In this document: positions 4,346 through 57,734 of the stretch, piece by piece
How positions within the stretch are numbered: the stretch's first letter is position 1
Layout: each line of letters starts with the position of its first letter
From: a virus
Reading direction: 5' to 3' (one strand)
DNA length: 64,000 nt
IMG/VR virus record: IMGVR_UViG_3300045988_131075
Span: 29,671-93,670 of that record
Translations under genes and position numbers: made by a program
The notes under the pieces: generated by a model
What the model saw: only the letters and a program-made list of their open reading frames with translations
Databases searched by the model: none
What the model was told of the DNA's origin: nothing

Positions 4346-4387
4346 ATTTTGCAAAGTAAAAATTAAGAGAGAAAGGAGATTTTTTTG

Positions 4388-7300
4388 ATGGCTAAACAAT
4401 TAAATAGTTATCAAGTTAATTTACAATTTAATGCAAATACTGCATAGGCGAAAACGCAATTGCAAGATTTGCAAACAACTCTTGATGCTATTATAAAAGA
4501 GTCTGTAGCGGGGGTTTCTAAAGGAGACTTTAATTTAACTAAAAGATTAAATGAAGCGCAGATAGCGGCATCAAAACTACAAACCATTTTAGCTCAAACT
4601 ACTAATGTAAAAACGGGAAAAATGGATTTAACAAGATTTTCTCAATCTTTAAAATAGAGTAATTTAGATTTAAAAAAGATATAGAATAGTTTACTTGAAC
4701 TTGGACCTTCTGGGCAAAAAGCTTTTATGTCTTTAGCTCAATCTATTGTTGAAGCTGATGTTCCATTAAAAAGAACAAATTTATTAGTTTCTGAATTATG
4801 GACAACTTTAAAGAATACAGCTCGTTGGTAGATTTCTTCTAGTGCATTGCATGCATTTATGGGTACTATTCAATCTGCTTATGGATATGCCAAAGATTTA
4901 AATGAATCTTTAAATGATATTCGTATTGTTACTGGACACAATATTGAATATATGGATAAATTTGCTGAAAGAGCAAATAAAGCGGCGAAAGCATTAAACG
5001 CTACTACATTAGATTACACTAATGCTTCTTTAATTTACTATCAATAGGGTTTAAGTGATGAAGAAGTAGAAAAAAGAACAGATATTACTGTTAAAATGGC
5101 TAATGTAATTAAACAAAATGCTGATATTGTTTCTGATCAATTGACTGCAATTTGGAATAATTTCTATGATGGCTCCGATTCTCTAGAACATTATGCTGAT
5201 GCGATGGTGCGCTTAGGTGCAGATACCGCATCTAGCTCTGATGAAATTGCTGGCGGTCTTGAAAAATTTGCGGCAGTTGCTAATACAATTGGTTTAAGCT
5301 TTGATAATGCAGCAGCTGCGTTGGCCACTATTACTGCTACGACTCGTCAAAGTGAAGATGTAGTAGGTACTTCTTTAAAGACTATTTTTGCTCGTATTCA
5401 AGGTTTAAAATTAGGTGAAACCTTAGAAGATGGCACTACTTTAAATCAATATTCACAAGCTCTTGCGGCTGTTGGAGTTAATATTAAAGACTCTAATGGA
5501 CAATTAAAAGATATGGATATCATTCTTGATGAATTGGGCCACAAATGGTCAACAATTAGTAAAGACCAATAGGTAGCTTTAGCTCAACAAGTAGCTGGTA
5601 TTCGCCAATATAACCAATTAATTGCTTTAATGGATAATTTTGATTTTTATCAAGAAAATATTCAAAGAGCAAAAGATGCAGATGGTTCTTTACAAGAACA
5701 AGCTGATATTTATGCTGAAAGCTGGGAAGCTGCTCGTGATCGTGTGCGTGCAGCAGCCGAAAGCATTTATGATGATTTGATTAATGATAAATTCTTTATT
5801 AGTTTGTCTGATGCGATAGCAGGAGCTTTAGATGCTATCGATAAATTGATTAGTTCTATAGGAGGTCTTCCGGGAGTAATTGCAGCTCTTGGAATGATAT
5901 TTACTAAAGTGTTTAAAGTTCAAATGGGCGAGGGCGTTAATAATTTAGTTTTTGGCCTTTAGTCTTTAGTTGGACTTACAAAAAAGAGTGCAGTTTCTCT
6001 TAAACAAGAAGCTTATAATCGAGCTTCTAATATGGCTTTTGATACTGGTACTGAAGTTGGAGATAGATAGGGAGAATCATTAAAATAGACTTTAGACTTA
6101 AAGAAAAGAATATATGATATATCTGAAAATATTACAAAAGAGGAAAGACAATAGCTTGAAGGGTTAATTGAAATTAATCGAGCTTATAATGAACAGGCTA
6201 TAAAAGCGGCTCAAAAAAAAGATTAGGCTAGTGAGAATCTTCAAAATACTCGCATGGATCTTAGAGCGCGCATAAGAAGAAATTCTGCCACTGGAAAAGT
6301 AGAGAAAAATTTAAATACTTTTGGAAATGTTCAATAGCAAATGGGTGGAATTATTAAAACTGGTTTGCGAGGAACTAAAGCTTTAGATGGACTTAATAAA
6401 GCATTAAAAGAAGGAAGTCCATTAGGAAAAGCTTTTGAGGGCAGAATAAATACAATTCAGCAGGCTTTAATTAAAGTAGATAGATCTGAAGCAGCTAAAT
6501 CTATTGGAAATTTTGTTGAAGAATTAAAAAACGGAACTATAACAGTAGATTAGTTCTTGAAAAAAGTAAATAATGTTGTCACTAAAGAAAATTTAATGGC
6601 TGATGCTACATCCAAAGCGGCAACTATTCTTGAGGATGACTTTGGCAAAAAAGTTAAAATTAACGGCGAGGAATGTCAAAAGCTTGCTGAAGATATGACT
6701 GAAGTTATTGTAACAACAGATAAATTAAAAACTACTAATAAGCAAGTTGCTGGGTCTTATGAAAAAATAAAAGCTGCAATTGAAAATTATAAAAATGCTA
6801 CTGGAGATTTAGGGTAGAAATTAATTTCTATGGTTAATGGTTTTTCTTCATTGGCTATGGGATTGGCTTCCATTAAGAGTATTTTTGATACTTTATCTGA
6901 TGAAGATATGTCATTCTTTGATAAACTTTTATCAGTTAGTATGTCTTTAGGCATGGGTATTTCTATGACCGTTTCTGGCTTATCTACTATGGCTAAAGCC
7001 TATAAAGAATTGGCAGAAGCTAAAACTTTAGATAATATAAAGACTTCGATTAATACTGCTATTACAGAGATTAATAATCTGGTAAAAGCTTAGGCGGCCG
7101 CCAGAACAGGAACTCAAACAGTAGCTACAGATAGATAGGCATTGGCTGAAAGCAAACTTACAAAAAATATAATATTGTAGAATGCTGCCTATTTAGTCCG
7201 TAATACACAGATGTCTGCAACAGCAGCTTTTGGATTAAGTTTAGCTGGTACTATATTAGCTGTAGTTGCAGCTGCAGCGGCTTTAGTGCTTATATCTAAA

Positions 7301-10300
7301 GCAGTTTATAATTCTATTCATAAAGAAGAAATAGCGGCTGAAGCAGCAGCCAAAGCGGCTTCAGATCTTGGTAATGCTTATGATGAGTGTCGTGAAAAGT
7401 ATCAGCAAATGATTGATGAGTTTAATGAATACAAAGATGCCATAGATGCTTTGGATAATTTAACTAAAGGAACTCAAGAATATCGTGATGCTTTAGACGA
7501 GGCTAATCAAAAGGCTTTAGAATTAATTCAAAATAATCCTGATAAATTTAATAAAGATGATTATTATTGGGATGATAATAAATTAGTTATTAAAGATACA
7601 GCTATGTCTCGTGTAGCTGAAGCTAGTAGACAAGAGACAGCGGATTTATAGGCTGCTTCTGCTATGGCCAATGCCAATAATGCTCAGGCATAGGCAAATT
7701 TGCAGAAAGAAAATCTTACTGATATTGTTAAGAGTTCTTTGCGTAACACAGGTAATGTAAATAAATCTATTGATGCTTATTTAAATAGCGATAGAGTTGC
7801 TGTTGATAAAGAAGACTTAAAAGATATTCTTAATCTTGATAATGGTATAGACGATAAGGCTTTAGTTAATGTCCTTTGGCGCAATATTGATGCTTTAAAT
7901 GAGTTAAGAAATACTATGGATGGGGTTGAAACCTCTTTTGATCTTGCTAGTAAAACCGCAGCAAGAGCGCAATGGTCTGGTTCTGGTAAAGAAAATACTA
8001 AAGCTGGAAAAATGGCGCTTGAAGGTGGCGGAAGATTATATAATAATCTTTATGCTGAGGGAGAAAATACTGTTAAAGGTTATTCATTAGACACTAATTG
8101 GGCTGCCTATGAAAAAATGAATAATTTGAATTCTCTAAAAGGATATAAACGTTCTATTAAAAGCGATAAAGTTGAATACAGTTATTATGATGAGAATGGT
8201 GAAAAGATAACTTAGGAAATCAGTAAAGAAGCTATTCAAATCGCGGCCGCAACCCAATATGCTAATGATAGAATTGGAGAAGCTTTAGATAGCTTATATC
8301 AAAATATTGCTAAAGCTAATAAAGATGGCCTTGATAGTGTAGGGAAATATTTATCAACAGAAAATTTTGATAATATGACAAAAGGCGAGCTTGAACAATT
8401 TTAGGGATTAACTGATGATTAGTTAAAAGAATACGGAATTGATAAACAAGCTATTGAAGAAGCTAAGAAAGTTGTATTTGATGAAATGGATGGTCTTAAT
8501 GAAGCTATGAGCGATTAGATCACTGTTGGAGTGAATAAGACTTTAAAAGAAAATATTTAGAATTTTGGTTCTGAAGGTAAAGATGCCTATATTAGTGCTA
8601 TCAATCAAATTGGTGAATCTATTGATTGGAATGCTTTGTCTCCAGAATCTTAGGCTGAAGCTTGGAATAAAATTTCTAATATTAATTGGTTTGATTTTGA
8701 TGCTCAACGTCAAGCTGAAACTCTAATTAAAGAAATGGGCGGAGATGTTTCTGTTCTTGGAGATAATTGGGATAAAGCTTTTAGCTAGATGCGCAAAGCT
8801 GGAGATGTCGTTCCAGTATTAACTGATATCAAAGAACGCCTTGATAAAATAGATAATATTACTAAAGATATGAAAATCGGTAAGATTTTAGAAAAAGAAG
8901 ATTATGATACTTTAGTAAATTATAATAGTGAATTGGCAAGATATTTTGCTATTTTATCTGATGGGTCTGCTGTTTTTGTAGGTGATCCTCTTGATTTCCA
9001 GTAGATGGTTAAATCCACTAAGTAGGATGAATTAAGTAGAACTATAAATGGATACCAAAATATTATTGATTAGTATTATGCGGGGGCTGAAGAACTTAAA
9101 AAAGCGGGTGGATTAGATTAGATTCGAGAAGTTGGGTCTGAAAATGTTAATAATCAGTTAGCGTTTTTAAAGACTTAGAACTATGATGAAACATAGATTT
9201 CTGATTGGATTGGTAAGCTTGCTAATTCTAGAGGATAGGATATTGACACTTTAAAAGCTATTGCTGAAGCAGTTAATGAAGTTGGTAATTCTTTCTTATC
9301 TAGCAAAGATAGTATAGAACAATATACAGCAAGTAGTCAATAGGCTATGAATGAATTGGCAATGACCGCCGAAACTGCTCAAGAAGCAGAAGAAATGCTT
9401 AAAAATGGTAGTATCAATGAAATAGCTTATAATATAAGTGCTATATAGCGTATGTCTAGTGAAAAATGGGAAAATTTAGATTCATCTGAAGTAAATAAAT
9501 ATGCAGATTCTTTAATGAAGACAGCTAAAAGTTCTAAATTATTAAGTGATGAACTTGTAAATAATAAAGAGGCTGCTGAAGATGTAGCTCTTTACACTAT
9601 GAAAATGAATAATGGTGTAGAGAAATTGAAAAATGGCTTTAGCGGATGGGCTGATGTATTAACGAAATCTGATTCTGCTTCACAAGAATATTATGATGCA
9701 ATGGTTGATATTAAAGATGCCATGTCTGATGTGCTTGGGGTTTCAGAAGAATTTTTAACTGATGAGTTTATTACTAAAAATTTAACTGATATAGGCAAGG
9801 CTGCAGAAGGCGATGCTGATGCTATAGATCGTTTGGCCGCTGCGGCAAGTAAAGATATTCTTTTAAATGTTGATTTTGTTTAGGATAATAAACAATTACA
9901 AGATGTTTTATTATCAATGCATGATAAATTAGCGGCGGAAATTCCAGATATAAAAATTGGTACAACTTTTGAAGGTCAAGATGATTTAGTTAGATAGGCT
10001 CAAAACATTATCGGCACAGCAAAAATGACTGCTGAATAGGCAAATGCTTATTTTAGTGCCATGGGTTTTGAAACTAAATTTAAAGTTGAACCTCAAAAGA
10101 TGGAATAGGAAACCCCGATAGTACGTTCTAGATAGACAATAGTTGGAGCAGGATTTGATGAACACGGAGCTCCCTATTGGGAAACAACAACAGAAACTTG
10201 GAATGATGGATATAGCATTCAAACAGGTTATGTCGATGCTATTGCTATGGCGACCTCTCCTGATGGAACAAAAACTCCGATTATTGAAAGTATGACTAGT

Positions 10301-13300
10301 AAGCCTACTGGAATTATGAATAATAGTTCAAAAGCTAATAGAGGTACTACAAGCTCAAGTAAAGGCGGAGGAGGAAATAAAAATAAACCAACCAAGGGAG
10401 ATTTAACTAAAAAAAGCGATGTTGTTGATCGTTATAAAGAAATTACTGATAGCATCAATGATACCACTCGTGCTTTAGATAAGGCTAATAAATCGGCAGA
10501 TAGACTTTGGGGTAAAGCCCATCTTGATGCGATGGCTAAAAGTAATAAATTAACTTTAAAAGAAATTGATTTATTAAAACAAAAGCAAAAAGAGGCTTAG
10601 GCTTATCTAAAGACAGATAAAGTTACTTTATAGCAAGCTGCGAAAGAAGCTGGAATTACTTTCACATTTGATGAAGATGGTGACATTTCTAATTATACTG
10701 ATTAGATGACTAAACTTTATAATTAGCTCATAGCTGCTTAGAATAAAGCAAATTCTTTTTCTACAAAAGATGCTCAAGACGCTTATAAAGAAGCAACTTT
10801 AGATCCGATTCAAGAGAAAATCAATAAGTTGAAAGATGCTATTAAGCAATATGAAGATACAAGAGATTTAGTCGAAGAATTAACTGATGATATCCAAGAT
10901 AAAATAAACGAATGGCAAGATAAAAATTATCAAATGCTTACTTATGAAGTTGAAATAAAGGTTCAATTAGATGAAAATGATACTAAAAAATTAGAATATT
11001 ATTTTGATAAATTAAGTGATAATATTTATAAAGCCGCTGAAGCTCTTGGATATTTACAAGGCCAATTTGATCCAGTAATTAGTCAATTAGGAACTTACGA
11101 AAATTTCTATGGCCAGTTAAATAATGCTTATTCTAATGGAGAAATCTCTCAAGAAAATTATATTGAAGGCTTACAAGATGTATATGATAATACATTAGAT
11201 AATTTAAATGCTTTGTAGGATTTAGATAAAGAAATGCTTGAATATTATGGTAATACTATAGATTTGGCAAATGATGAATTGTCTAAATATACAGACCATA
11301 TGGAACATTTAACCAATGTATTAGACCATTATCGTTCTATTATTACTTTATTAGGCAAAGATAAAGATTATGATAAAGTTTTATCAGTTTTAAATGGAAC
11401 TGCTTAGACTAAGAAAAATAATTTTGATACTTCTAAGCAATGGTATGAAAGCTTGAAACGTGAACGCGATGCGGCGGCCGCAGCTTTAGCCAGTTCAACT
11501 GATGAGGCTGAACGTGAAGTGCTTCAAAAGAATTATGATGCTATATTAGCCGCATTCGATGAAGCGGAAGAGGATATGCTTTCTAAAGCTGAAGAATATG
11601 GCGAAGCATTAAAAGAAATTCTTACTACAAAGATGGAGCAAGCTGCGGATGAAATGAATAAGCAATTAAGCACTACTAAAGTAAGTATTAATGGTAATAA
11701 CTTTAATATTTCTGGTTGGGATGCTTTAAATGATGCTTTGGATAGAATGTCTTCTTATCAAGATGAATATTTAACAAAAACTAATTAGATTTATGAAATG
11801 AATAAACTACTTAATAATGTTAATTAGGCTATTGATAAGACAAATAATCAAGCAGCTAAAAATAGATACCAGCAATTTACTAAAGAAATTGAGTAGTTAA
11901 GAGATAAAGATAAATTAAGTCAATTAGAATTAGAAATTGCTTAGGCTAAATATAAAGTACTTGAAGCGCAAATTGCGTTAGAAGAAGCTCAAAACGCAAA
12001 GTCTACAGTTAGACTGCAACGTGATAATGAGGGCAATTTTGGTTATGTGTATACCGCAGACCAAGAGAAAGTAAATGATGCGCAATAGGCTTTGGCGGAC
12101 GCGGAAAATGATTTATATAACATTCGCCTTGATGCGACAAATAAATATGGTCAACAAAAACTTCAATATGAGAAAGAGTTGGCTGACAAACTTGCGGAAC
12201 TCGATTAGAAAGCTGCGGAAGATGCCGTTTACCGCGAGACCGCTTATCAGCAAGAACGCGCTTTAGTAATTCAACAATATACTGATTTAATTACTACTGC
12301 TGGAAATCTTTATGCAAAAGCTCAAGAAGAGGATAGTAGAGTTGTTCAAGACGCTTGGGTAAATTCTTTTGATATTATCAAAGATAATAGTAATAGTTGG
12401 AAAGATACTATTACTGAAAACACTAATATTATCAATGATACATTTAAAGAATGGCAAGATAGCATGGATGAAATTAGTAAAATTGTTGGTGATGATTTAA
12501 AAGATACTCAATAGAAAGTTAAAGATGTTACTGATGAAAGTAATAAACTTTATCAAGAAGTATCTAATAGAGTTATTCCTACTCTTGAAAGCGAGTTAAG
12601 TTCTGTCCGTAGCGCTACTGAAGCTTGGGCACAACATCGTCAGCAATTACTTGATACTATTAGAGCTTATGAAGAGCTTTTGAACGCTATTCAAGCGACA
12701 TTGCGCGCTTAGAGTGGATTTGGTAGCGATAGTAGTAATTCTTCAACAAGAGTTGATTGGTCTGAAAAAATGGGTCAAGTTGAATATGGTTCTGATAAAT
12801 ATAATGAATATTATCAAAATCGTGAAGATGTTATTAAAGGAGGATATGACATTAAAACAGCTACAAATGCTCGTGTTAATGCTTTTTATCAAAAAGGATT
12901 GACATTACCAATTACCCGCAATGGAAAAACTTATACTCATTTTACTGATATTCCTGATAGCATTTGGAAACAATTAGTTGGGTTTAGAAGTGGCGGTTAT
13001 ACTGGCACTTGGAATGATGGTGGAAAATTAGCGTTCTTACATTAGAAAGAATTAGTTCTTAATGCTGATGACACGGAAAATATGTTAGCTTCTATCCAAT
13101 TAGTTAGATAGATCGCGAAACAATTAGATTTCAATAGTCAACAAATTTCTACTCTTTCTTCTTCTGGATTTACTGTTAGTTCTCAAGATGGAACATTAGA
13201 ATAGAATGTTAGAATTGAAGCTAATTTCCCGAACGCAACTGATAGATACGAAATTCAAGAAGCATTTAATACATTAGTTAATGTAGCTTCTCAGTATGCC

Positions 13301-13312
13301 AATAGAAAATAA
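4388..13312 (+). CDS. Tape measure protein, about 2974 aa. This is a single ORF once TAG is read as sense, with many tens of in-frame TAG codons.
   Basis: RBS GAAAGGAG precedes the ATG at 4388. All 15 long track ORFs from 4460 to 12770 share one frame, and the gaps between them contain only TAG. The stop is TAA at 13310-13312. The protein is Ala/Gln-rich and helical, with no enzymatic motif recognised. Confidence 0.7.
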
Positions 13313-27193: not shown

Positions 27194-27213
27194 AGGATAG
27201 AAAGGAGTAAATT

Positions 27214-30200
27214 ATGTCTAAGATACGTTTTCGTCCTGTATAGGGTCCAGAAGAAAAGATAAAAGCATATCCACAAACTGATGGATATTTTTATGTGGCA
27301 ACAGATACCGGACGAGTTTATTTAGATACAGCGACTGAGAATAAAATACCAATAGGTTCAAGTGGCGTTTAGGTAATTTATGGAACTGAAAAAGACGTCG
27401 GAATTGATTATGATGCGGATGAAAACCCAATCGGATATTCAATTCGTTTATCTAATTTATCAAGTTCTAATCCTCATGTAAATGATTTAATTTTAAATAG
27501 CGATGGAGCATTTTATCGTATTAAAGAATTTAAATTAAATGATGATAAAGAAGAAGTCGCAAGTTGTGAAAAATTATTGGCAGGCAGTGGAAGTCAAGAC
27601 CAAGAAGTCAAAGTAAATGGTACTGTTTCTTTAACTTTAGATGGACCTACTGATGTGCTTAATGGTGAATCAGTAAGCGTGACCGCGCTTGTAAAATGTA
27701 GAACAATAAACGGAGAACCAGTTCTTGATTCTGTTGAAGGTACTTTAACTATTAGATAGAAAAAGAGTGATGGTTCTTGGGAAGATATTTATAGTGAAGC
27801 AAAAACTTATTAGCATAATAAACCAATTACTACTGATATTTCTGCTTATTTAAGAAATTCTTCTACACATGAAATTGAGTTTATCGTTAGTAAAAATAGT
27901 GATCCTACTAATAACCATTTTTCTACTACTAAAAAGACTCAATTTGTAACAACTCATGAATTAACTCTTCAATGGCAAGAAAGTAAATTTAATAATGATT
28001 TACCTTTTGATAATGGTCAAATTAATGTTACTTGGTTAATGTCCGATAAAGTAAATAGTGCTATTGAAGTTTATTTTGATAATTATTTAGTTTTAGATAA
28101 AGAATATAGCAGTACTAATACTAGAAATGAAGATAGTATTACTATAACAAAAAATACTGTTATTTTAAATAATAATAATGATTCTACAATGACTTTAACA
28201 AATTATTTCCTTCACGGAGAACATACTATTAAGGCTAAACTTTATTTAGTTAATAGTGGTGAAAAAGGAAATGGTACTGATTTTATTGAGAAAGAAATTG
28301 TTGTTTTAGATAGAAGCAGTAAGACTCCTTTAATTTGGACAGGTGACTTTAAAACAGAATATTATATTTATGAAACTATTAGAATTCCTTTTAGGGTATA
28401 TGATCCTAATGTAACGATCGCGAAAGTTAGTTTATATAAAAATGGTGTTTTATTAAGTACTCGTGAAGTTACTAACTAGAATGAATGGCAATATTGGGAA
28501 ATTACTAATCTTTCTGTTAATGACAGCTCTTATTATACAATTAAAGTAGGAACTGAGCCATATGATTATTCTCGTAATTTTACTTTTATAATTAAAATAG
28601 ACCCATTAAGGAATATGGAATTAGCTAGAAGTAATGATTTAAAAGTTAATTTCGTTGCTACTGGACGTTCTAATTCTGAGAGTAAATTAAGTCGTGAAAC
28701 ATTAGAAATTAATGGTAAATATGCAGAATTTAAAAACTTTAACTGGTATAATAATGGTTGGGTTTTTGATGATAACAATACTACTTGTTTAAGAGTTAGT
28801 AATGGTGCTGAAGTTTCTATTCCTATTGGACAATTGTCTTTTGATAATAGTTCTTCTACTCCTACACATAGTATTGAGATTCAATTTAAAATTAGAAATC
28901 CACAAAATTATTCTAAAGTAATTACCAAATATACTCGTTATAAAGCAAGCGATGAATCTGGAAAGTCTTGGACTGATAGAGATGCTTGGGATGCATTTAA
29001 AGATTAGACTATCTATGTTAATTATGATGAATTTTTAACAAAGAAATATTTACCAGAGCATCCAGAAGCTCCAAGTTATGATGAATTAACCTATAATGGT
29101 TTAGATCAAGATTTTAATTTAAATAATCTTGTTTGCGCTTATGGGTCTTTAAAAAATCCTTTAGGTATCTATTTTAGTCCTCAAGATGCTGTATTTACAG
29201 CTAATGGTGATGAAGAGACTGTTTCGGTTGATTTTGTAGAAGATGAAATGTTATATTTAACATTTGTTTACACAAGTTCTAAACCTAGTCATACTGGCGG
29301 AGATTCTAAATTATTAGAAATTTTCTTAAATGGTGTTTTAACTAGTGTAGCTCGTCGTTCTGATAAATCTAGTAATTCTGCTTGGACAATTGATTCTGAT
29401 GTTATTAAATTTATGTCTAATACTTGTGATATTGATATTTATAGTATTAGAGTTTATGATACTAGTTTAACTATTCCTGATGTGGTTTAGAACTATGCCT
29501 TTGATAAAAAAGATATTAATCAATGGGATTAGAAAGATCTATATGATTATAATACTATTTTAAATGATTATGTATTTTCTTACCGTAAAATGCTTGACTA
29601 TAATACTGAACACACTGATAAACCATTGATGCCTTATATTATTTTAAAAACTACTAAAAATAATAGTGAAAGTACTGATAATAGACTTCCCTACTCCAAG
29701 GACAATGGCGCTCAAAAAGGAACTATGGAATTTGTAAATGTTCCATTAGATACTGCTTATGCTAAGGGCGAACTTGATAAAATAGTTGAAAAAGAAGGTT
29801 GGAAACCTGTAATAGATGATAAAACTAATGAAGTAAAATATACTGCGGTATAGAATTATTATTTACATCATTGCCCTAGTTTTATAACTCTTTTTGATAA
29901 AGCGACATTTTAGGTTTAGGGAACTTCTTCGCGTAATTATCCAAGACGTAATTATAAAGCTAAATGTAAAGAAACGATGTTTATGAATAGAGGACCTTTT
30001 GAATCTATTTATAAAGAAGAAGAGGTTAATAATAACTTAAATACGAAAAGTAAGAGTTATCTTGAATTTTTCTATATGGATAATAATACTGTTGGTACTA
30101 CTAAATTTACTTTAAAGATTGATTTTATGGAATCTTCTGGAGATTATAATAGAGGATTTGCTAATTTAGTTAATGAGACTTATTCTAAACATCCAGTAGA

Positions 30201-33200
30201 AGATTACCAAGACTCTTTTGATAAATATGATTTATATGGAGATATTGATGATTATAGGACTTCTATAAAAGGATATCCCGTTCTAGCATTCCATTGGCCT
30301 TCAACTAACGATAATGAATATAGTGAAAATGATATTATTTATATTGGAAAATATAATATGTTATTAGATAAAGGCTCTGATGAATGTTTTGGATTTAAAC
30401 CCAATAAAAAAGTTTTATAGAATCAAATTGAAGGAACTCCAAGAGTAAGGGATGTTGCTGAATGCTGGGAATTTTAGAATAACTCAAGAACATACTGCTC
30501 TTTCCGTGATCCTTGGAATAGATATAAATTATCTTTTAGACCTCCATTAATGGATGATAATAACTCAGCAGGTTATTTAACTTCTGGCGGAGCTCCAATG
30601 GTTGCTGATTCTTTTGAAGTTAGATATAATTCTAATGATGATTTAATCGGCGATGTGTTGTTTAAATGTACTTCTGCTGAAGCTACTGATGCTGATAAAA
30701 TAATTGAATATGCTGATGGTATAAATAATACCGTTCCTAATAGATTAAAATCAGAAATAATCGTTGATGGAACTACAGGGACTAAACATAAGCAATGGAC
30801 TATTACTAATCCAGGACAAGATCCTGTCATATTTGACATGAAAAATAGAAATACTTCTCGTGAATTACTTCTTGCATTAATGTCAAATTGGGAAGATGCC
30901 GTAAGTTGGGTTTGGAGTACTTGCTTAGATTGTAGTATTGATTTTGATGGAATTTTATATGAAATTCCTTCAATGGGTAAATATGAAAAAATAGATTTGG
31001 CAGAAGCTAAATATGAACCAAATAAATATTACTTATTTGATAAAGTTGATGAAAGTGGTAGTGAAACTTATAAAATTGCTACGAAAGAATTTGATTCAGA
31101 AGAAAAATATTATATCTATAATAAAGATACCAAAATTTATAGTATAATTAAATTAACTGATGATGATAGTAAAGTTTATTAGATAAATAAATATTATATT
31201 TTATAGGATTAGGATAATAAAATTTATATTCTAGATTCTGAAAAATATAATCCTTATACTACTTATTATTCTTTTATTGAAGATGAAAGTCAAATTGATG
31301 ATAGATGGATATTACCTAAACCAGTAACTTATAACTCAGTTACTTATACAAAAGATAGTAAGGAATATCGTCAAGCTAAATTTAAAAATGAGTTAAGCAA
31401 TTATTTTAATATTGAATATTTAGCTACTTATTTTTTAATGACTGAGATTTTTGAATGTTATGACTCTCGTGGTAAAAATGCAATGTTTGCTTCTTGGGGT
31501 CCTCAAAAAGGAAATATTGAAAAAACCACTGGAATTCAACACTATATTTGGTATCCTATTTTTTATGATATTGATACACAATTGGGTATTAATAATACTG
31601 GTATTCCATCATTTGAGTATTATGTTGATGCGACTGAAGATGGTAGTTATTCTACTAATGATAGCGTATTATGGAATAATTTCTATACTTTTTTCAAGAG
31701 TAAAATTGTTGATAAATATAAACAATTAATGGGTAAGCCAAATGGTTCTTATGATTAGAGCCAAGTAAAACAAATTTTCAAAAAAGAATCTGGAACTTCC
31801 TCTAAAAAGAGTGATGTTGTTGACAAATGGTATAAAACAGATCCTTCTTTATTCCCAGGTAGCTATGCTGTATAGGGAGAACGTCCTATTATTGCTTTAA
31901 ATTTAGATGAAGAATATAAATATATTATTCCAACTAATTCTGCGGCTAAAGATACTATTTTTGGTCGTATTACTAATGGCGGCCAATATGAGATAGAAAG
32001 TGACCAATATTTCTATGCTTTATAGGGCGACCGCAATCTCTATCGTTCACAATTTTTAACTAATCGTCTTAATTATATTGACTCTTGGTTGACAGTTGAT
32101 GAATATTCTGGAGATAGTGGTAGTAATAATATTATAAGTCGTATTTCTGCTAATAATCCAAATACTACTTCTGATGAATGGATTGAAGGAACTAATAATC
32201 AAGGCTTAACTAATTTAATAACTAATTCTCAATATTGGAAAAATGGTACTGAATTTGGTACTAAAAATCATATGTTTGATGGTGAGTATTGGATTAAGAT
32301 GGAACCCGCGCGTCGTTCTTATGTTACTGTTGGAACTGATGGAGCAAACTTCCCATCTTAGAAATATGATGGTTTAACTCCTGTTAGATTTACCGCCCCA
32401 GATCTAAAGAAAGGTATTATGTCAAGTGGTAATTATCGTGAACAATTATATTATATTTATGGCTTAGAATAGATGAAATCTCTTGGAGATTTAAGTAAAT
32501 TATATTTCCAAGAATTATTTATTAGAGGTAAGGCTAATAAATTAGTAGATTTGTTATTAGGATATGATGGTCTTTCTGAAGAAGGAAAAAAATATAAAAA
32601 TAATGACGTAAATAATTGGAGTTATCCTAGTGAGGGTATGCCTTTATTGAAAGAAATGAATCTTTGTAATATTAGATTTTTAAATCCAGTAGCTTTAGAT
32701 TTAACTAAAAGCGAAAAATTAGAAAACTTTAGAAATACTGGTTCTAATGTTACTAAAGTGTAGTTTGCAGAAGGTGTCGCGTTAAATACTTTGTATTTAA
32801 CTGATTATACAAATTATTTAAGTTTAATAGAAGCAAATCTTTTAACTAAGTTAGTTACTAAATATGTATATCCTACAGTTAATCCTATCACTAATCGTCT
32901 TGAAGTCGCAGAAGAAAATAAAGGATTGTATATTAAGAATTTAACTGATGCTGAAGATAATGCAATTACAACAAGTATAAAAACTTTTGATATCCGTGGT
33001 GGTAATCTAGATTATTATTCTTACGAATTATTAAGACGTTATTATCTTGGGTGTGAAAAGAGTAATTTAATTGGATGCGAAGTTAATTTAACTAATGTTC
33101 AATGGAGTCCTTATAGATTATTAAATGATGATAAAACAAAGTTAGATAGTGTTAATATTGAATATTATAAAGATAATGGACATTTCCAATTAGAAAAAAT

Positions 33201-34917
33201 TAACACGGAAGATATAAGTAAAATTACTCCAAGTGAAATAAAAAATAATTTAATTTATTATTATGATAATAGTGTAAATGGATATAATGATATTCACAAT
33301 AAAATTATTGATTATACTTTATTACGTAGTTTATATGATAAAGCTCCTGTTTATTTCAAAGGCATTAATTAGACTTATCCTAATATAACTGGCATTATTT
33401 ATATTGAAAATACCCAAGAGATAGAAGAACACATAATTCAAGAAGAGCTATAGAGTATTTATCCTAATTTAACTATTTTTGTAAAAAATGTTAAGAAAGA
33501 GTATTCTGCTAAGTTTGTCCTTGAGCAAGAAGACGCGAATGGAGTATTAACTCAAGAAATTTTAAAGACTTAGAAGTTACCTTTATCAAGCTCTAAGTTT
33601 TTTGATAATCCTACAGATTCTTCAAGTGAAACTTATATTTCTTTTGGTAGTTTACAAGAAAAAATGCCAACCTATAATTTTAAAGGTTGGGAAGACGATA
33701 CTGGTGAATTAGTAATTACAGTTGGAAAAGATGTGAATGAAAAAGATACTATTTTAAAAGATAATTGGGGTTCTTTATCCTTACAATCTAATAAAATAGA
33801 TTATATCTTTAAAGCGAGATTTGAGCGTAAATCTTATACAATTACTTTTGTTAATGGCGACCGCGTCGTCAATGATTCGACCGTAAAGAAAGTGTTTAAT
33901 TATGGTGAAAGAATTACTGTTCCAGATGAATTTTATTATTTTAATAACACAGAAGTGACAGATTTGCCAGATGGGGAGGATCCTTTAGAATGGACTTGGA
34001 GACAGACTGGATGGGCCGATAAAGATGGAGTTAAAATTGATTTAACAAGATAGTTAGCTTATGCCGATCGCGAATTTTATGCTGTTGGAGAACCAGTTAG
34101 TGTTTATGATAATATCTTAGTTAATGATTCCACTCATAAATATTATGATATTATAAATTCTGACGGAGAGTTATCATTTGTAATGACTGATTTAGCTAAG
34201 AATTTAAAAGGTAAAATCACTTTACCTACAACCTATAATGGTTAGCCAATTACAAGAATTAGATACAGTCAAGTTAATCCATCCGCAGCAGTGGGCATTC
34301 AAGTAAATCCTAATATTACAGCAATATTTTTTGCTCCAAAAGATAGTAATAAAATTTCTGTGATAGATGATTATGCTTTTACTTTAGATAGCGGATTGGA
34401 ATATTTTTAGTTCAGTGATTGTTTAAAGAAAATTGGCATTAAGGCATTTTATCAATGTCCTTTAAGTCGTAATAATATAATTCCTTATTCTTCTTCTACG
34501 GAAGGTTTAACTTTTGGAGCTCAAGCATTCTATCAAAGTAAGATGGGGTCTTATTCTCCTTATAATTTAATTATAGAGGGATGTACAGATGGTATTCTTA
34601 ACTTTGATGTAAATGCGTTCTCTGGCTAGACGATTTTAAATATGTCTGGTAATTAGTTTAAGGGCTATACTGGTGCTATCCAAGTATAGATTGGCACTAA
34701 TAAACATCCAATTAAATAGATTACAGCAGATAGTTCTGGTAATATTTTTACTCCTCGTCAAACAGGTATGCCTACTGTCGCTAATGGATATACAGGTCGT
34801 TTTAGATATTATTATGTTGCTAGTTATGGTGAAAGTGTTAAGAATACTTTACACAAAATTTATGAAGCAATGATATCTAATAGAGCAAACTTTGAAGAAG
34901 AGCCTATTGTAAAGTGA
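27214..34917 (+). CDS. Giant tail fibre or adhesin-like protein, about 2567 aa, with about 40 TAG codons and a concanavalin/LamG-like segment.
   Basis: ATG 27214 (RBS AAAGGAG) is in frame with 15 track ORFs from 27577 to 33664. Every gap was checked and contains only TAG. The stop is TGA at 34915-34917. Confidence 0.55.
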
Positions 34918-50400: not shown

Positions 50401-51427
50401 ACAGATAATTGGATATTTATCAAACCATTCTGAAGGAATAAATCCTTTCTTATAATCCTTTACTTCAACTTTTGGAATAATTTGTTTTCTTTCTAATGAA
50501 TAAAAAGAAATTTTATTTTGGATCTCTTGAGTGTTATCAAGAATCCAATTTATCAATTCTTTTCCTGTTTTATTATCTTTATCCCAATCATTAGCATAAG
50601 GTTCCATTAATTCAAAAATTTCATCACTTGTCATTAAGTAAGTAAATTTATAAAAATCGTCAACTTCTCTTTCTCCTGGCTTAGAAGTAAGATATGCTTT
50701 ATGAATGGGTCTATCTTCTTTAGTTAAATAATGCGCATCTGTTCCAACTACTATTTTTAAATCAAATGCCTTGGCAATTTGATAAATTTTATGATTTACA
50801 ATTATTTGCTCAGCATCAGTAGATGGCGCACATTCAAGATAAAAATCATCTTTTCCAAATACTTTAATACAAAAATTAATATAATCAATTATTTGATTAT
50901 AATATTTAGTTTGAGTTTCAATATCTTTATTTAATTCAGCTTGGAACATTGGTAAAATACAGCTACCGAGTTCTCCACCAATACAAGCAGTTGTTGCTAT
51001 AACATGCCCTTTATATTGTTCCATTACCATTTCAAGTTCACTTTTTAAAGTAGGAACTCGTTCCATACGTCTGTCAACATAACTATGAATCCAAGCAATA
51101 GAACTTAATTCTCTTAATGCCTTATGTCCAATAGCATCTTTAGCGATAAGAATAAAGTGGTAATATTTTTGTCCGTTATCTCTTGTATCAGTGAGATAAA
51201 TTTCATTACCAAGAGCAATAGTAAAATCAGGATTTTCTTCTCTTATTTTCTTTGCATATTGATTTACTTCCATATGCGCAGAAAGACACTCATGGTCTGT
51301 AATAGTTATTCCTGATAAGCCTAATTCTATTGCTTTGTCAATAAGAGCTTGTGGTCTATTAATACAGTCAAAGTAAGCGGAGATTCGAATACATAGTATG
51401 ATTATGGATACCAAAATATGATCTCAT
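47437..51427 (-). CDS. dnaE: DNA polymerase III alpha subunit (DnaE type), about 1344 aa. The first 19 codons (51371-51427) lie in the -1 frame relative to the main ORF. They are joined to it by a candidate +1 frameshift at CUU UGA C (51367-51373).
   Basis: The main ORF of 1325 aa has no TAG. The PHP motif FGIHNHTMYSNLRLL is encoded upstream in the other frame, starting at an ATG that overlaps the HNH stop (ATGA). The joined product ...NLRLL-DCINRPQ matches the DnaE N-terminus ...SLLDG. Confidence 0.7.
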
Positions 51428-52089
51428 TCTAACTCCAACCCTCCTTCCAAATTCATTATTTTATCAATAAAATAATCTGAAGTAGTATTTGTTTTTATTT
51501 TAAAAGCATTCCATTCTTCCATTGTCATATCTCTTTTTGAAAAATTTTCATAAACTGTTAAAAATTGATAATTTTCTAATTTTTCTTCTCCACCTTTGGA
51601 GATTGGAATTATATGATCTAAGCTAGGTTTGGCCCAATCATAAAATGTTTTATTTTTATTCTTATTATTATTCCAAAATTGGTATACTTTATTAAATTGT
51701 TTATCTTGCCAAAAATATCTTATAATAGTTTTATATTCTTCAATATGATTATTATAATAAAGCAAATCTCTATGAGTAATTCTTAATGCTTTATGTAAAA
51801 ATAAATATTTTTCAAAATCTTCTTTAAATTCATTAAGAAAATCTTCTTCAACTTCTATATAAGTTGTTGCTTGGAAAGCTTTTTTCTTTCTATCACAACC
51901 ACAACTAGTTTGGGTATAATTCCCATTCCCTGTTAAATATGAAGTAGGCACTTTACAATAATTGCCACATTCACATTTACACAGCCAATAATTTCCATGG
52001 GTTTGTGTCGGACGTTCTTCTATTGAGCAAAGACGTATAACTTTTAATTTTCCAATTTGTTTATCAGTTAAGTCATATTTTGTAGCCAT
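51424..52089 (-). CDS. Free-standing HNH homing-type endonuclease, 221 aa.
   Basis: It has an N-terminal Cys-rich zinc finger and the C-terminal motif PSLDHIIPISKGG...N...N. Its own RBS is AAAGGAG. Confidence 0.6.
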   Translation of the reverse strand: MATKYDLTDKQIGKLKVIRLCSIEERPTQTHGNYWLCKCECGNYCKVPTSYLTGNGNYTQTSCGCDRKKKAFQATTYIEVEEDFLNEFKEDFEKYLFLHKALRITHRDLLYYNNHIEEYKTIIRYFWQDKQFNKVYQFWNNNKNKNKTFYDWAKPSLDHIIPISKGGEEKLENYQFLTVYENFSKRDMTMEEWNAFKIKTNTTSDYFIDKIMNLEGGLELE

Positions 52090-52190
52090 AAAAAATCTCC
52101 TTTAATTTTGTTATATTATTTGAAAATCTAACAATAGAAATTTTTTAAGGTTGCCCGATTTTCATTTATATTTATATAATATCATATTAT

Positions 52191-52455: not shown

Positions 52456-53655
52456 TTACTTCCTTATAATTACTAATTTATCACTGGCTCTAGTAGCCAT
52501 AGTATATAAATATTTTTTATGTTCTTCTCGATCAAAAGGATGATTTTCTTCAAATCCTAATACTTTTCCGTATTCACTACCTTGCGCTTTCCAACAGGTA
52601 ATAGCGTAAGCATAGGAGAAATCAAGTGGAGGATCGAGGCATTGTTTATTATTTCTTAATTGATAGCATTGGCTACCTGTAAGAGTCCCTTCACCGGTGA
52701 TAAGTTGTTTATAATCAATTGGAGTCCCACAAAATTTATCTCCATCGCTTAAAACAATTTGAGTAAACATATAAGTAATAGGAACTTCTGAAATATAATA
52801 AGGGACTCGAATGTCTTCAGTATAAAAATCTTCAATAGTTCCAACAGTGCCATTAGTTAAGACCCATACTCGATTCTCAGACATAAAATCCCAGTTATTA
52901 TGTAACCCAATAATTTTATCTCCAATTTGAGGGACATTAGGATCAAACCCTTTTCTTAATCGGACTACATTATTAATTTTAGTTCTCGTAGCATTTTTAG
53001 CACAAATAATCTAATCTGCCCAATCGTACATTTCAGGTATAACTTGACTTTTATCATATACTCTTACTTGTTTTCCTTCTGGACGATAAGAAATTAAAGA
53101 TTTGCCTTCTCTAATCCACATTGAAAAACGAATAATTTCACTATCTTGCGCTTGACGCATAATTTCATCGAGAAAAATATGTGGTTTATCTAATACACGA
53201 TTATTTTCATTAGGATCTACAGGAGGTAATTGACCTGGATCGCCGGCCGCAATAATATAAATACCATGGGTTAGCATTAAGTCCCATAATTTTTTAGGAA
53301 GCATTGATACTTCATCGACAACAATTACTTTATATTGGGCCAATTCACTATTGTCTTTTGGAAAAAATTTAAAAGTTCCATTAGCCATCATTTTAGCTTT
53401 ATATAAAAGTTTATGCGCGGTTGTCGCATTCGGGCAACCCTTTTGTTGAAGCACAGTCGCAGCTTTACCTGTAAATGCTACATAACAAACTTCTTCTTCT
53501 GGATCAACATCAAGAGCAGAAATAATAAATTTAATCAAAGTGCTCTTTCCGCTTCCCGCGTATCCCGCTATACAAGTCCAACGCTCATGGGCGTAATAGC
53601 GCTCAACCGCAATTTTCAATCCTTCTTCTTGTTTACGAGTTAATTCCATTTTCAC
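52456..53655 (-). CDS. Dda/RecD-like superfamily 1 DNA helicase, about 399 aa, with one TAG at 52993-52995.
   Basis: It has the Walker A motif GYAGSGKST and the C-terminal motifs ITCWKAQGSEYGKV and YTMATRA. The two track ORFs are joined by a single TAG. Confidence 0.6.
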
Positions 53656-53854
53656 ACTCTCCAGGGTTTAATCTATAATATTTATTTTCATCAGCTATAA
53701 AATAATCACAAGCCCATTTTAATGTTCCATAAACACCTGTCGTATGTCTATCTATATTATCTAATTTAGAAATTAATTCTTGAGCTTTATTATAATAAGA
53801 ACAATTTTCATAATTAGAACAATAATTACATTGTTCTTTCCAGTAAATCCACAT
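53633..53854 (-). CDS. Hypothetical Cys-rich protein, 73 aa.
   Basis: Track ORF. Confidence 0.35.
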   Translation of the reverse strand: MWIYWKEQCNYCSNYENCSYYNKAQELISKLDNIDRHTTGVYGTLKWACDYFIADENKYYRLNPGECENGINS

Positions 53855-55863: not shown

Positions 55864-56036
55864 AAATGATTTCCTCCTAATAGGTTTTTTAAGTCTATTA
55901 GTCGTAGTGTCAATTATTAAAAATAATAAGCAGCCCTATCTACAATTTCGTAATCTTCTATAATAATCTAAGGACTAATGTTATTATTCCATATATTTCG
56001 TTCGCATTTACCAACGATATTAATTGTCACATAACC

Positions 56037-57665
56037 CTATTCAGAATACAATTTCTCGTATTCCTCCTCGGACGACTTAAACTTGATTAAACTGATGCCA
56101 TCTGGCATAGTTATCTTCAAGGTAGGATTTTTATCTTTTGACATTAAAGTTAAGTTATTTGATGCAACTTTTATTCCTTCAACGGCAATAGATGCTTCTT
56201 CTACCCCTTGGCCCCAAAGTGGTTTAAGTTGAGCGATATCAATAATATCTTTTCCAACTAAATCATTAGTGTGATAAATAAAATCAACACTATAAATTGG
56301 GGTGAAATCAAAATCTTGTAAAGCAGAATTCGCATATTCAATAAATTTATTAAAATTATTATCAATAATACCAAATCCAAAAGCATTAGGATGCCCTTCC
56401 GCATACATAATTAGATTTGATTTTTGACAAAATTCTCTAAAGTCTTTAAGCGCGGATTTGTCGTATCCTCTGCCGGAGCCTTCCCAACAAATTTGTTGAG
56501 TTTCTTCATCTATTGTTTTATTAAGAATTAAAACAGGACGTTGATATTTGCTCATTAATTGATTGGCCATTAATCCAGTCAAATTTTTGTCAGCAGCAAA
56601 TCCATCTAACTTAATTCCTAAGATTTTATTACTTAAAAGATTTTGATTTGCGATTATCTATTCAATTTTTTCCAAGCTAGTGTCTCTGATTTTAGTTTGC
56701 CTATTCTTGATATTAGTACAATTACGACAAGCTTGTTCTACTCTTGTTTCTGCTTGACCTTTACATCCACGTTTTGTTGAAGGGACAAGTTCGTATCCCT
56801 TAAAATCAAGCATCGACTCGAATAGCATGAGCTTTTCTTCTTGCGTCCCAACACGAGTAGTTGCATTAACTAAAGGAGCAATATAGAAAGCTACTCCAAT
56901 AGGCGTAATCTCATTATTAAAATGAAACTAATCTCTATTGATTATGCCTCTGAAGTAAGGATTGGTGATTTGTTGTAAGCCTTTATTAATTAAATGTTTT
57001 GTTTCAAAATCACGCATATCCATCATGTCGGCCACCATTCCAAGAGCAACTAAATCCAATATATGATCCGCATACTGAACATTCATAAGTTCATCAATAT
57101 AACAACAAAACTTATAAACCATTCCTACGCCAGATAAAGATTTGGTTGGATAATCACATAATTGGTTGTTAATAATACAAGCATACTATGATATTTTATC
57201 AGCTTCATGGTGGTCTATTACCAACACGTCAATACCATTTTTATATAAATATTCGTGTTCTAAATAATCATTTGATGAAGAATCTGGAGCAATTACTAAT
57301 TTAATATCTTTATCAATACTATCTGGTATAATTCCGTGTTGTTTTCCTGCATGGACACGATAAAAAATATTGTTTTGCACAAACGCAGGAAAAAGACAGT
57401 ATAAGTAATTCATGAGTGCGGCCGCCGAAGTATAGCCATCACAATCACTATCTACCTATATAAGAACTTTGTCATTTTGTGCAATATGTTTGACGAGCAT
57501 TTTTGCACCATTTTCTATTCTATCAATAGTTGCTGGTTCTATAATGTCGTCATCAGTGGTATTAAGATAATGAGGAATATCTTGTAATTTAATTCCTCTA
57601 TTGGTTAGCACCTGTTCGACCGCTGAATACTGCGGGATGCGAGGAGCTTTTAGTTGATAGTCCAT
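56037..57665 (-). CDS. recJ: RecJ-like DHH-family ssDNA exonuclease, about 542 aa, with 4 TAG codons.
   Basis: It has DHH motifs (DSDCDGYTSAA, LVIDHHEADK) and a DHHA1 motif (GHPNAFGFG). Four track ORFs are joined in one frame by TAG codons. Confidence 0.6.
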
Positions 57666-57734
57666 AGGCTATTCAACCTCCTTTCATAATACCACCACTA
57701 TTATTTAAGAATTTCTATAATTTACTTATTCATA

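Follow-up and report, generated by a model that had tools for sequence, protein, structure and literature searches.

Recoding Signals, Mobile Endonucleases and the dnaE Locus

The +1 frameshift signal of prfB, the gene for RF2, is defined by an internal Shine-Dalgarno (SD) sequence located 3 nt upstream of a CUU codon. For the free-standing endonucleases of T-even phages (MobE and the Seg family), marker co-conversion is characteristic, and immunity is provided via target-site substitutions. In phage T4, the MobA gene and the 50-nt insert of gene 60 form one mobile element, in which the insert blocks self-cleavage (Manning and Atkins, 10.1101/2022.08.31.505936; PMC5009743). The insert is present in every phage with the MobA nuclease and in several that have lost it, and the nuclease is sometimes replaced by one of another family (10.1101/2022.08.31.505936; PMC5009743). 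According to a 2022 survey, the bypass cassette of gene 60 "remains unique" (10.1101/2022.08.31.505936). A further precedent is the "savior indel" with compensatory frameshifting, known from G-run mutants of the herpesvirus thymidine kinase (PMC5009743). Here, a dnaE gene with a broken reading frame is described from a 64,000-nt stretch of viral DNA (hereafter, the window; positions 29,671 to 93,670 of the IMG/VR record IMGVR_UViG_3300045988_131075). The locus combines a prfB-type shift site with cassette logic of the MobA/gene 60 type; it is a member of neither family, since it lacks the stimulator and feedback loop of prfB and is not a 50-nt bypass. The reading favored here, with a probability of roughly 0.6, is that ribosomes genuinely shift to the +1 frame at an insertion linked to a homing-endonuclease cassette, by analogy with MobA/gene 60 of T4.

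With prfB, the dnaE locus shares the order of a short open reading frame (ORF0) and then a long one in the +1 frame, as well as the heptamer CUU UGA C, at which tRNA-Leu would presumably re-pair from CUU to UUU at the weak stop UGA-C and resume at GAC. A preliminary description of the window called the site prfB-identical. This wording holds for the heptamer but not for the internal SD that defines prfB, which is present in 0 of 35 distinct alleles. A further difference is that the dnaE site is present in some genomes and absent from others, in linkage with a mobile nuclease gene, and because the product is a polymerase rather than RF2, there is no autoregulatory loop.

The likeness to MobA/gene 60 is of a different kind. 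In both systems, the gene immediately downstream of an endonuclease gene is an essential replication gene, and an untranslated insert that opens with a stop interrupts it in a highly conserved coding segment a few dozen nucleotides into the ORF. In both, the insert outlasts the nuclease, and in L051 the nuclease is replaced by another family. Matching take-off and landing codons are a likeness found in sister alleles only. As each comparative feature of the T4 system has a counterpart here, the extra T of the window may be read as the smallest member of the same strategy. The target, on the other hand, is an unsplit dnaE and not a topoisomerase gene; the insert is 1 nt with an overlapping +1 shift, or 3-10 nt in sister alleles, instead of 50 nt; and neither a conserved hairpin nor a nascent-peptide signal was identified at the dnaE site.

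Like MobE and the Seg endonucleases, the locus shows an intergenic insertion beside a conserved gene of replication or nucleotide metabolism, an indel with exact boundaries that distinguishes near-identical genomes, and a dense, short tract of substitutions beside the insertion. Unlike them, it is distinguished by a frame-breaking insertion that requires recoding, not by substitutions. Like a savior indel, the inserted T would bring an advantage at the level of the DNA and be tolerated because some ribosomes restore the frame. The dnaE site is, however, conserved across deep divergence with a selected context and is not a recent escape mutation.

Organization of the Recoded dnaE Gene

The elements of the gene are as follows.

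51371..51427, minus strand: dnaE ORF0, 19 sense codons encoding MRSYFGIHNHTMYSNLRLL; carries the HxH metal-binding start of the PHP domain
51367..51376, minus strand: shift site UUA CUU UGA C; the skipped base is T51370
47437..51369, minus strand: dnaE main ORF in the +1 frame, DCINRPQALIDKA..., 1310 codons plus stop; remaining PHP domain and Pol III alpha catalytic domain
51433..51446, minus strand: SD region of ORF0, with AAGGAGGG at 51446-51439 and GGAG at 51436-51433

ORF0 begins at an ATG (51427-51425) that shares bases with the TGA ending the upstream ORF (ATGA), and the GGAG of its SD region, which lies inside the 3' end of a putative HNH endonuclease ORF, is 5 nt upstream of this ATG. 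The zero frame encodes MRSYFGIHNHTMYSNLRLL and then meets a TGA at 51370-51368. At the shift site, TTA (51376-51374) would occupy the E site and CTT (51373-51371) the P site, followed by the zero-frame stop and C51367; the heptamer CTT TGA C thus spans 51373-51367 of the minus strand. With T51370 skipped, translation continues as GAC TGT ATT AAT (encoding DCINRPQALIDKA...) and remains open without break to the stop at 47439-47437, and the predicted junction peptide of the frameshift product is LLDCINRPQALIDK. Read-through of the UGA was ruled out as a route into the main frame, as the zero frame runs into TAA and TAG two codons on. The sole start codon of the main frame is a TTG at 51414, from which an ORF finder reports a protein of 1325 aa. 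It has no SD, and ORF0 has one. The preliminary description had placed the PHP motif in a short frame that starts at an ATG overlapping the HNH stop and ends in CUU UGA C, and had noted that the main ORF opens at a TTG without a ribosome-binding site; the minus-strand reading agrees on both points.

The joined protein has 1329 aa. Its match to Pfam PHP (residues 7-199, profile positions 2-161 of 164, 4.8e-25) is unbroken across the junction, and it also matches Pfam DNA_pol3_alpha (4.8e-31). From residue 3 onward it aligns with the solved DnaE chains 5lew_A and 7pu7_A, and PolC chains of the PDB match too. Together, ORF0 and the main ORF are thus predicted to encode a colinear DnaE with an N-terminal PHP/HxH region and the Pol III alpha domain. 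The heptamer CTTTGAC itself occurs five times in the window against 5.9 copies expected, and the remaining four copies are on the non-coding strand; a count at chance level is uninformative. Chance does not account for its location, where two ORFs that form one domain meet, or for its conservation in relatives.

The Frameshift Site in Related Phages

Three sets of alleles were assembled: viral contigs found with the dnaE protein as seed, loci found with the HNH protein as seed, and matches to a nucleotide pattern. As the pattern fixed CGY TTR CTT TGA, which is part of the site, statistics were restricted to the sets found by protein similarity.

The dnaE-seeded search of viral contigs returned 79 dnaE loci. 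A frameshift at the identical site and codon was present in 11 of 80 dnaE-seeded relatives, which fall into at least four separate clades of the DnaE tree and have DnaE identities of 65-99%. Two allele types occur among relatives that are 97-99% identical to the window: a contiguous allele reading ...AAT TTA CGT CTA TTA GAT TGT... and an extra-T allele reading ...CGY TTA CTT TGA C/T.... The +1 break lies between the same two codons in L051 and L055 (DnaE 75% identical) and in L067 and L069 (65%). All 37 viral-contig matches to the nucleotide pattern are dnaE 5' ends; they come from more than 20 metagenomes, have very different N-termini, and show M...HxH..[YFM]SN[ILF]RLL-TGA as ORF0 and D[CS]IN... 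in the +1 frame. A looser pattern applied to bacterial and archaeal genome bins yielded four true cases and 13 chance matches. The four metagenome-assembled contigs with the site were binned as Lachnospiraceae, Erysipelotrichaceae, Clostridium and Bacteroidaceae. A frameshift lineage of higher G+C content (L098/L107/L160/L161, 0.45-0.47 vs about 0.30 elsewhere) keeps CGC TTA CTT TGA CTC exactly.

In sum, more than 20 metagenomes contributed 35 distinct alleles with the extra T at the same codon, and the N-terminal DnaE identity of these alleles to the window goes down to roughly 35-55%. This recurrence in many differing relatives excludes sequencing error and recent pseudogenization. An artifact of homopolymer sequencing or assembly, or correction by RNA polymerase slippage on the T run, is improbable in the extreme: the site does contain TTT, but dozens of independent assemblies, whose flanks differ, have the extra T, and the runs known for transcriptional slippage, of 8 or more, far exceed the three T present here (PMC3711429). 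The preliminary description had also regarded relatives with a contiguous ORF and no UGA as evidence against frameshifting. Such relatives exist (L001 and others), and they do not refute the frameshift, because both allele types coexist as a polymorphism. Its central proposal, a +1 shift at CUU UGA C that joins the PHP N-terminus to the main ORF, is upheld; the shift is evolutionarily maintained, as indicated by the 35 distinct alleles and by the selected context described below.

Upstream of ORF0, frameshift relatives have a strong SD followed by ATG, GTG or TTG. The amino acids of ORF0 are conserved while its codons vary synonymously, including switches between TCN and AGY codons for Ser. 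Ten or more distinct alleles lack any start codon in the stretch of the +1 frame that runs from its upstream stop to the junction, which means that translation of the main ORF cannot begin there independently. These observations bear on the idea of an inactivated gene or split protein, in which a truncated DnaE would be made from a downstream start or complemented by a co-infecting phage. Gene callers would indeed report the 1325-aa ORF from TTG 51414. That TTG, however, has no SD, many alleles offer no +1-frame start codon, the downstream ORF is intact everywhere, and the SD, the start codon and the HxH...YSN.RLL segment of ORF0 are under purifying selection across alleles with N-terminal DnaE only roughly 35-55% identical. 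This explanation is therefore highly improbable.

The context of the site is biased as well. CUU_U is invariant across 35 of 35 distinct frameshift alleles. In the protein-similarity sets, UUA precedes CUU in 23 of 24 distinct frameshift alleles vs 22 of 52 contiguous ones (p=4e-6), and GAC is the Asp codon past the shift in 21 of 24 vs 12 of 52 (p=1.4e-7), the Fisher tests treating alleles as independent though they are related, so that these p-values overstate independence. The preference for GAC gives the stop the context UGA-C. This synonymous bias points in the direction predicted for a selected shift site UUA CUU UGA C. According to the review of Atkins et al., CUU_U is by far the most efficient +1 shift codon in bacteria (PMC5009743).

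The Putative HNH Gene Upstream as a Mobile Cassette

Immediately 5' of dnaE, the following features are found.

51424..52089, minus strand: free-standing putative HNH endonuclease gene, 221 aa, with the motif DHIIPISKGG...N...N
51430..52159, minus strand: HNH cassette indel of about 730 nt; 16 nt stand in its place in 97-99% identical genomes such as L001
51367..51413, minus strand: tract of synonymous differences from the HNH-less allele, ending at the inserted T; presumed co-conversion or target-site region

The upstream ORF matches HNH families of PHROG at 1e-11 to 1e-6 (best, phrog_374 'HNH endonuclease', 1.1e-11); its score against Pfam HNH, 18.5 bits, is below the cut-off of 21.4. Residues D158-H159...N173...N182 are invariant in a nine-sequence family alignment (A1). 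The breakpoints of the indel were determined by blastn (positions 2269-2998 of the re-oriented window copy). With respect to L001, the 730-nt indel sits precisely at the border of the preceding gene and the dnaE ATG. On its 3' side, the window and L001 share 96-100% identity apart from the initial 60 nt of dnaE. Of 112 differences between the window and the HNH-less allele over 4400 nt, 13 fall in dnaE nt 15-60, all of them synonymous, and 99 in the next ~4340 nt. A second presence/absence polymorphism lies 1 kb from the HNH indel: in the close relatives L001 (2058-2688), L007 and L009, the helicase gene and the small ORF that follows it are separated by an insertion of 630 nt, which contains an ORF of 214 aa (MKKILSIDFDIIMSPC...) and is missing from the window (position about 52454).

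In the dnaE-seeded set, the HNH gene adjoins 4 of 11 frameshift alleles vs 0 of 68 others (p=2e-4). A search seeded with the HNH family alignment A1 provided a larger sample of 53 HNH loci, every one of which has a dnaE as its immediate downstream neighbor; of these 53 dnaE genes, 45 carry a recoding insertion. Three types were distinguished.

27 of 53 loci: CTT TGA frameshift, site as in the window
18 of 53 loci: short insert of 3-10 nt, 15 nt further upstream, directly past a Y-S or Y codon
8 of 53 loci: contiguous, with the near-invariant RLLD[CS]IN motif altered (LLDSII, MLDSTT, FRDAIN, LVDSTN, LRDSTN)

The contiguous loci are L135/L166, L148/L150, L151/L152, L162 and L164. The altered motifs of these genes may be target-site variants of the substitution type.

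Pairs of relatives with and without an adjoining endonuclease, both of which keep the frameshift, were found in four lineages: window/L007, L091/L083, L101/L096 and L051/L055. The first three involve this HNH family, and in window/L007 and L091/L083 the partner devoid of the HNH gene still has the final ~20 nt of that ORF, in which the dnaE SD lies. In the fourth, the endonuclease is a different one. L051/L085 have another homing-endonuclease-like gene (L051 2088-2873, 263 aa, PHROG phrog_559/phrog_9084) 5' of the frameshifted dnaE, and L055, which is close to L051, is without this gene and keeps the frameshift. Frameshift alleles without the HNH of the window thus include L007, L083, L096, L087 and L055. 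Pairwise identities of HNH and DnaE are correlated (r=0.76), with discordant pairs such as L133/L145 (HNH 66%, DnaE 35%). Neither a strictly vertical nor a strictly horizontal history of the HNH gene fits both observations, and both were rejected. A correlation with clear exceptions indicates a history that mixes long residence with occasional transfer. Across the sequences compared, the distribution of the frameshift follows the HNH family and not the DnaE phylogeny. The preliminary description had overlooked this linkage, which accounts for the extra T on firmer grounds.

Short Inserts in Sister Alleles

The short inserts of the sister alleles are located about 45 nt past the dnaE start codon, and each opens with a zero-frame stop (TAG, TAA or TGA). 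In eight of 11 designs, the insert ends in a codon synonymous to the codon ahead of the stop:

L129: TCT-TAG-TCA (in frame)
L052: TCT-TAAC-TCT
L133, L143: TCT-TGAGG-TCT
L140, L154: TCT-TAGCG-TCA
L131, L134: TCT-TAGTGGG-TCT
L146 (L146/L169): TCT-TAGGTGA-TCC
L153: TAT-TAGT-TAT
L165: TAT-TAGG-TAC

Removal of the insert and one repeated codon restores the canonical ...YSN.R..., and by a rough count the chance of eight matched-codon designs is about 6e-11. The matched codons look like the take-off and landing signature of translational hopping, and the designs look like natural stop-hops. Precedents for hopping are synthetic 'stop-hops' and T4 gene 60; a natural in-frame stop-hop is said to be unknown (PMC5009743). 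L129, L052, L133 and L153 resemble such stop-hops. The window differs in having the overlapping +1 form instead of a hop, and matched take-off and landing codons were not found in it. Three inserts have no matched codons (L120, TCT TAGT GCT; L149, TCT TAAACGA ACT; L163, ACT TAGCG GAG); they need a net +1 or +2 shift and show no obvious re-pairing site. The stop-hop-like inserts bear on the window because a sensor of UGA or RF2 does not explain them, whereas pressure to disrupt the DNA without changing the protein does.

Genetic Code of the Phage and a Possible Regulatory Role

The reassignment of UAG suggested in the preliminary description was confirmed by ORF totals under the two codes: ORFs of at least 150 aa amount to 20012 aa with TAG as sense but to 11016 aa when the standard code is applied. 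In the window phage, TGA functions as a true stop, terminating 13 of 44 long ORFs. Neither a release-factor GGQ motif nor a tRNA gene, and hence no suppressor tRNA, was found in the 64-kb window. The flanks fetched for other frameshift-bearing phages are early-gene regions and do not discriminate between TAG codes.

The late-gene block (window 1-39000, plus strand) is readable only with TAG as sense and includes giant ORFs at 4367-13312 (2981 aa) and 27211-34917 (2568 aa); the GC skew changes sign near 39-40 kb, at the switch of coding strand. In-frame TAG is also present in two genes on the replication-gene strand, namely, a P-loop helicase-like ORF at 52456-53667 (minus strand) and an ORF at 55917-57683 (minus strand), each of which is split into two ORFs by the standard code. 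The use of TAG as sense is thus not limited to the late block.

In a phage with such a code, the site might serve as a regulatory sensor that couples polymerase output to RF2 and UGA termination, an idea put forward in the preliminary description; it might be tied to the UAG reassignment, and the HNH gene would be incidental. The heptamer is that of RF2 autoregulation, and since the level of RF2 sets the outcome at UGA-C, RF2 competition is intrinsic to the dnaE site (PMC5009743). The context is also selected for shiftiness. Near-identical genomes (L001 and others) are without the site, so the replication programme does not need it. The site does persist in endonuclease-less alleles of the kind listed above, and the window phage is TAG-recoded, but the overall distribution tracks the HNH family rather than DnaE phylogeny, and sister alleles carry quite different inserts at a neighboring codon, which a UGA/RF2 sensor leaves unexplained. 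Considering in addition the lack of an internal SD and the failure to find a release factor or suppressor tRNA in the window, a regulatory role of this kind, though compatible with the mechanism, is unlikely.

Frameshifting and the Immunity Hypothesis

According to the frameshift reading, ribosomes would initiate at the SD-led ATG at 51427, read 19 codons, and stall when peptidyl-tRNA-Leu occupies CUU and the A site holds the weak stop UGA-C. Part of them would then re-pair the tRNA on UUU, one base forward, and resume at GAC into the 1310-codon frame. The rest would terminate via RF2, releasing a 19-residue peptide. The extra T would belong to, or would have arrived with, the adjacent free-standing HNH cassette. 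It sits in the highly conserved coding sequence of the PHP motif, which is likely the region recognized or cleaved by the nuclease. The T most likely shields the carrier genome from its own nuclease, while recoding would keep the protein sequence unchanged, a logic demonstrated by experiment for MobA and the bypass insert of T4 gene 60.

Several observations weigh against this reading, in addition to the overstated independence of the p-values. The insertion is not obligatory, given that eight of the dnaE genes next to an HNH gene are uninterrupted, and many frameshift alleles have no adjoining endonuclease. An SD-like 4-nt core within 20 nt 5' of CUU was found in none of the 35 distinct alleles, and folding of the 60 nt past the stop (mean -7.6 kcal/mol with the frameshift, -9.2 kcal/mol in contiguous alleles) is no more stable where the frameshift is present; with no internal SD and no evident 3' structure, the efficiency may be low. 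Finally, CTT GAC is a common ancestral sequence, so the insertion of a T could recur by chance and be merely tolerated.

This last point leads to the view that the T is a tolerated hitch-hiker: a chance insertion in CTT GAC would have made a leaky shifty site that spread with the cassette by passive co-conversion and has no role in immunity. Contiguous alleles with CTT GAC exist, the tract beside the cassette resembles one of co-conversion, and eight dnaE neighbors of HNH genes are free of inserts. Hitch-hiking is nevertheless a doubtful account, since recoding of 45 of 53 HNH-adjacent dnaE genes by at least 12 designs at two neighboring positions is hard to obtain without selection for disrupting this segment, and since the UUA/GAC context bias shows selection on the site itself.

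Relation to Deposited Phages and Implications

The nearest DnaE proteins of deposited phages are those of Geobacillus GR1, Leuconostoc, Staphylococcus 6ec-like and Enterococcus phages and YorL of SPbeta, with at most 49% identity. No junction break was found in the top 40 DnaE matches among deposited phages, which are single uninterrupted alignments from residues 1-5, and the dnaE 5' end of Staphylococcus phage 6ec, read directly, is contiguous. A full-length homolog of this HNH protein was not found in any deposited phage. Full-text literature searches returned no report of a +1 frameshift in dnaE or of an HNH-linked recoding insert outside the topoisomerase genes of T4-like phages, and neither the literature searched nor the deposited phages examined provided a case of a replicative polymerase whose catalytic subunit depends on an obligatory +1 frameshift.

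For annotation, the consequence is that gene callers will truncate such dnaE genes or use a false TTG start in many gut and rumen phage genomes. For the biology of mobile endonucleases, the linkage to the HNH gene would give the MobA/gene 60 system its first analog. It is an even bet that the loci described here constitute a second, independent family of homing-endonuclease-linked recoding cassettes, in which an HNH endonuclease dedicated to dnaE would protect its carrier by means of 1-10 untranslated nt in the codons of the PHP motif, and ribosomes would repair the message by a prfB-like +1 shift, as in the window, or by short stop-hops, as in the sister alleles. The sister alleles would then supply natural short stop-hops, so far known mainly from synthetic constructs. 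If this is true, the bypass of T4 gene 60 would no longer be a one-off and would instead belong to a graded natural series from +1 shifting to hopping.

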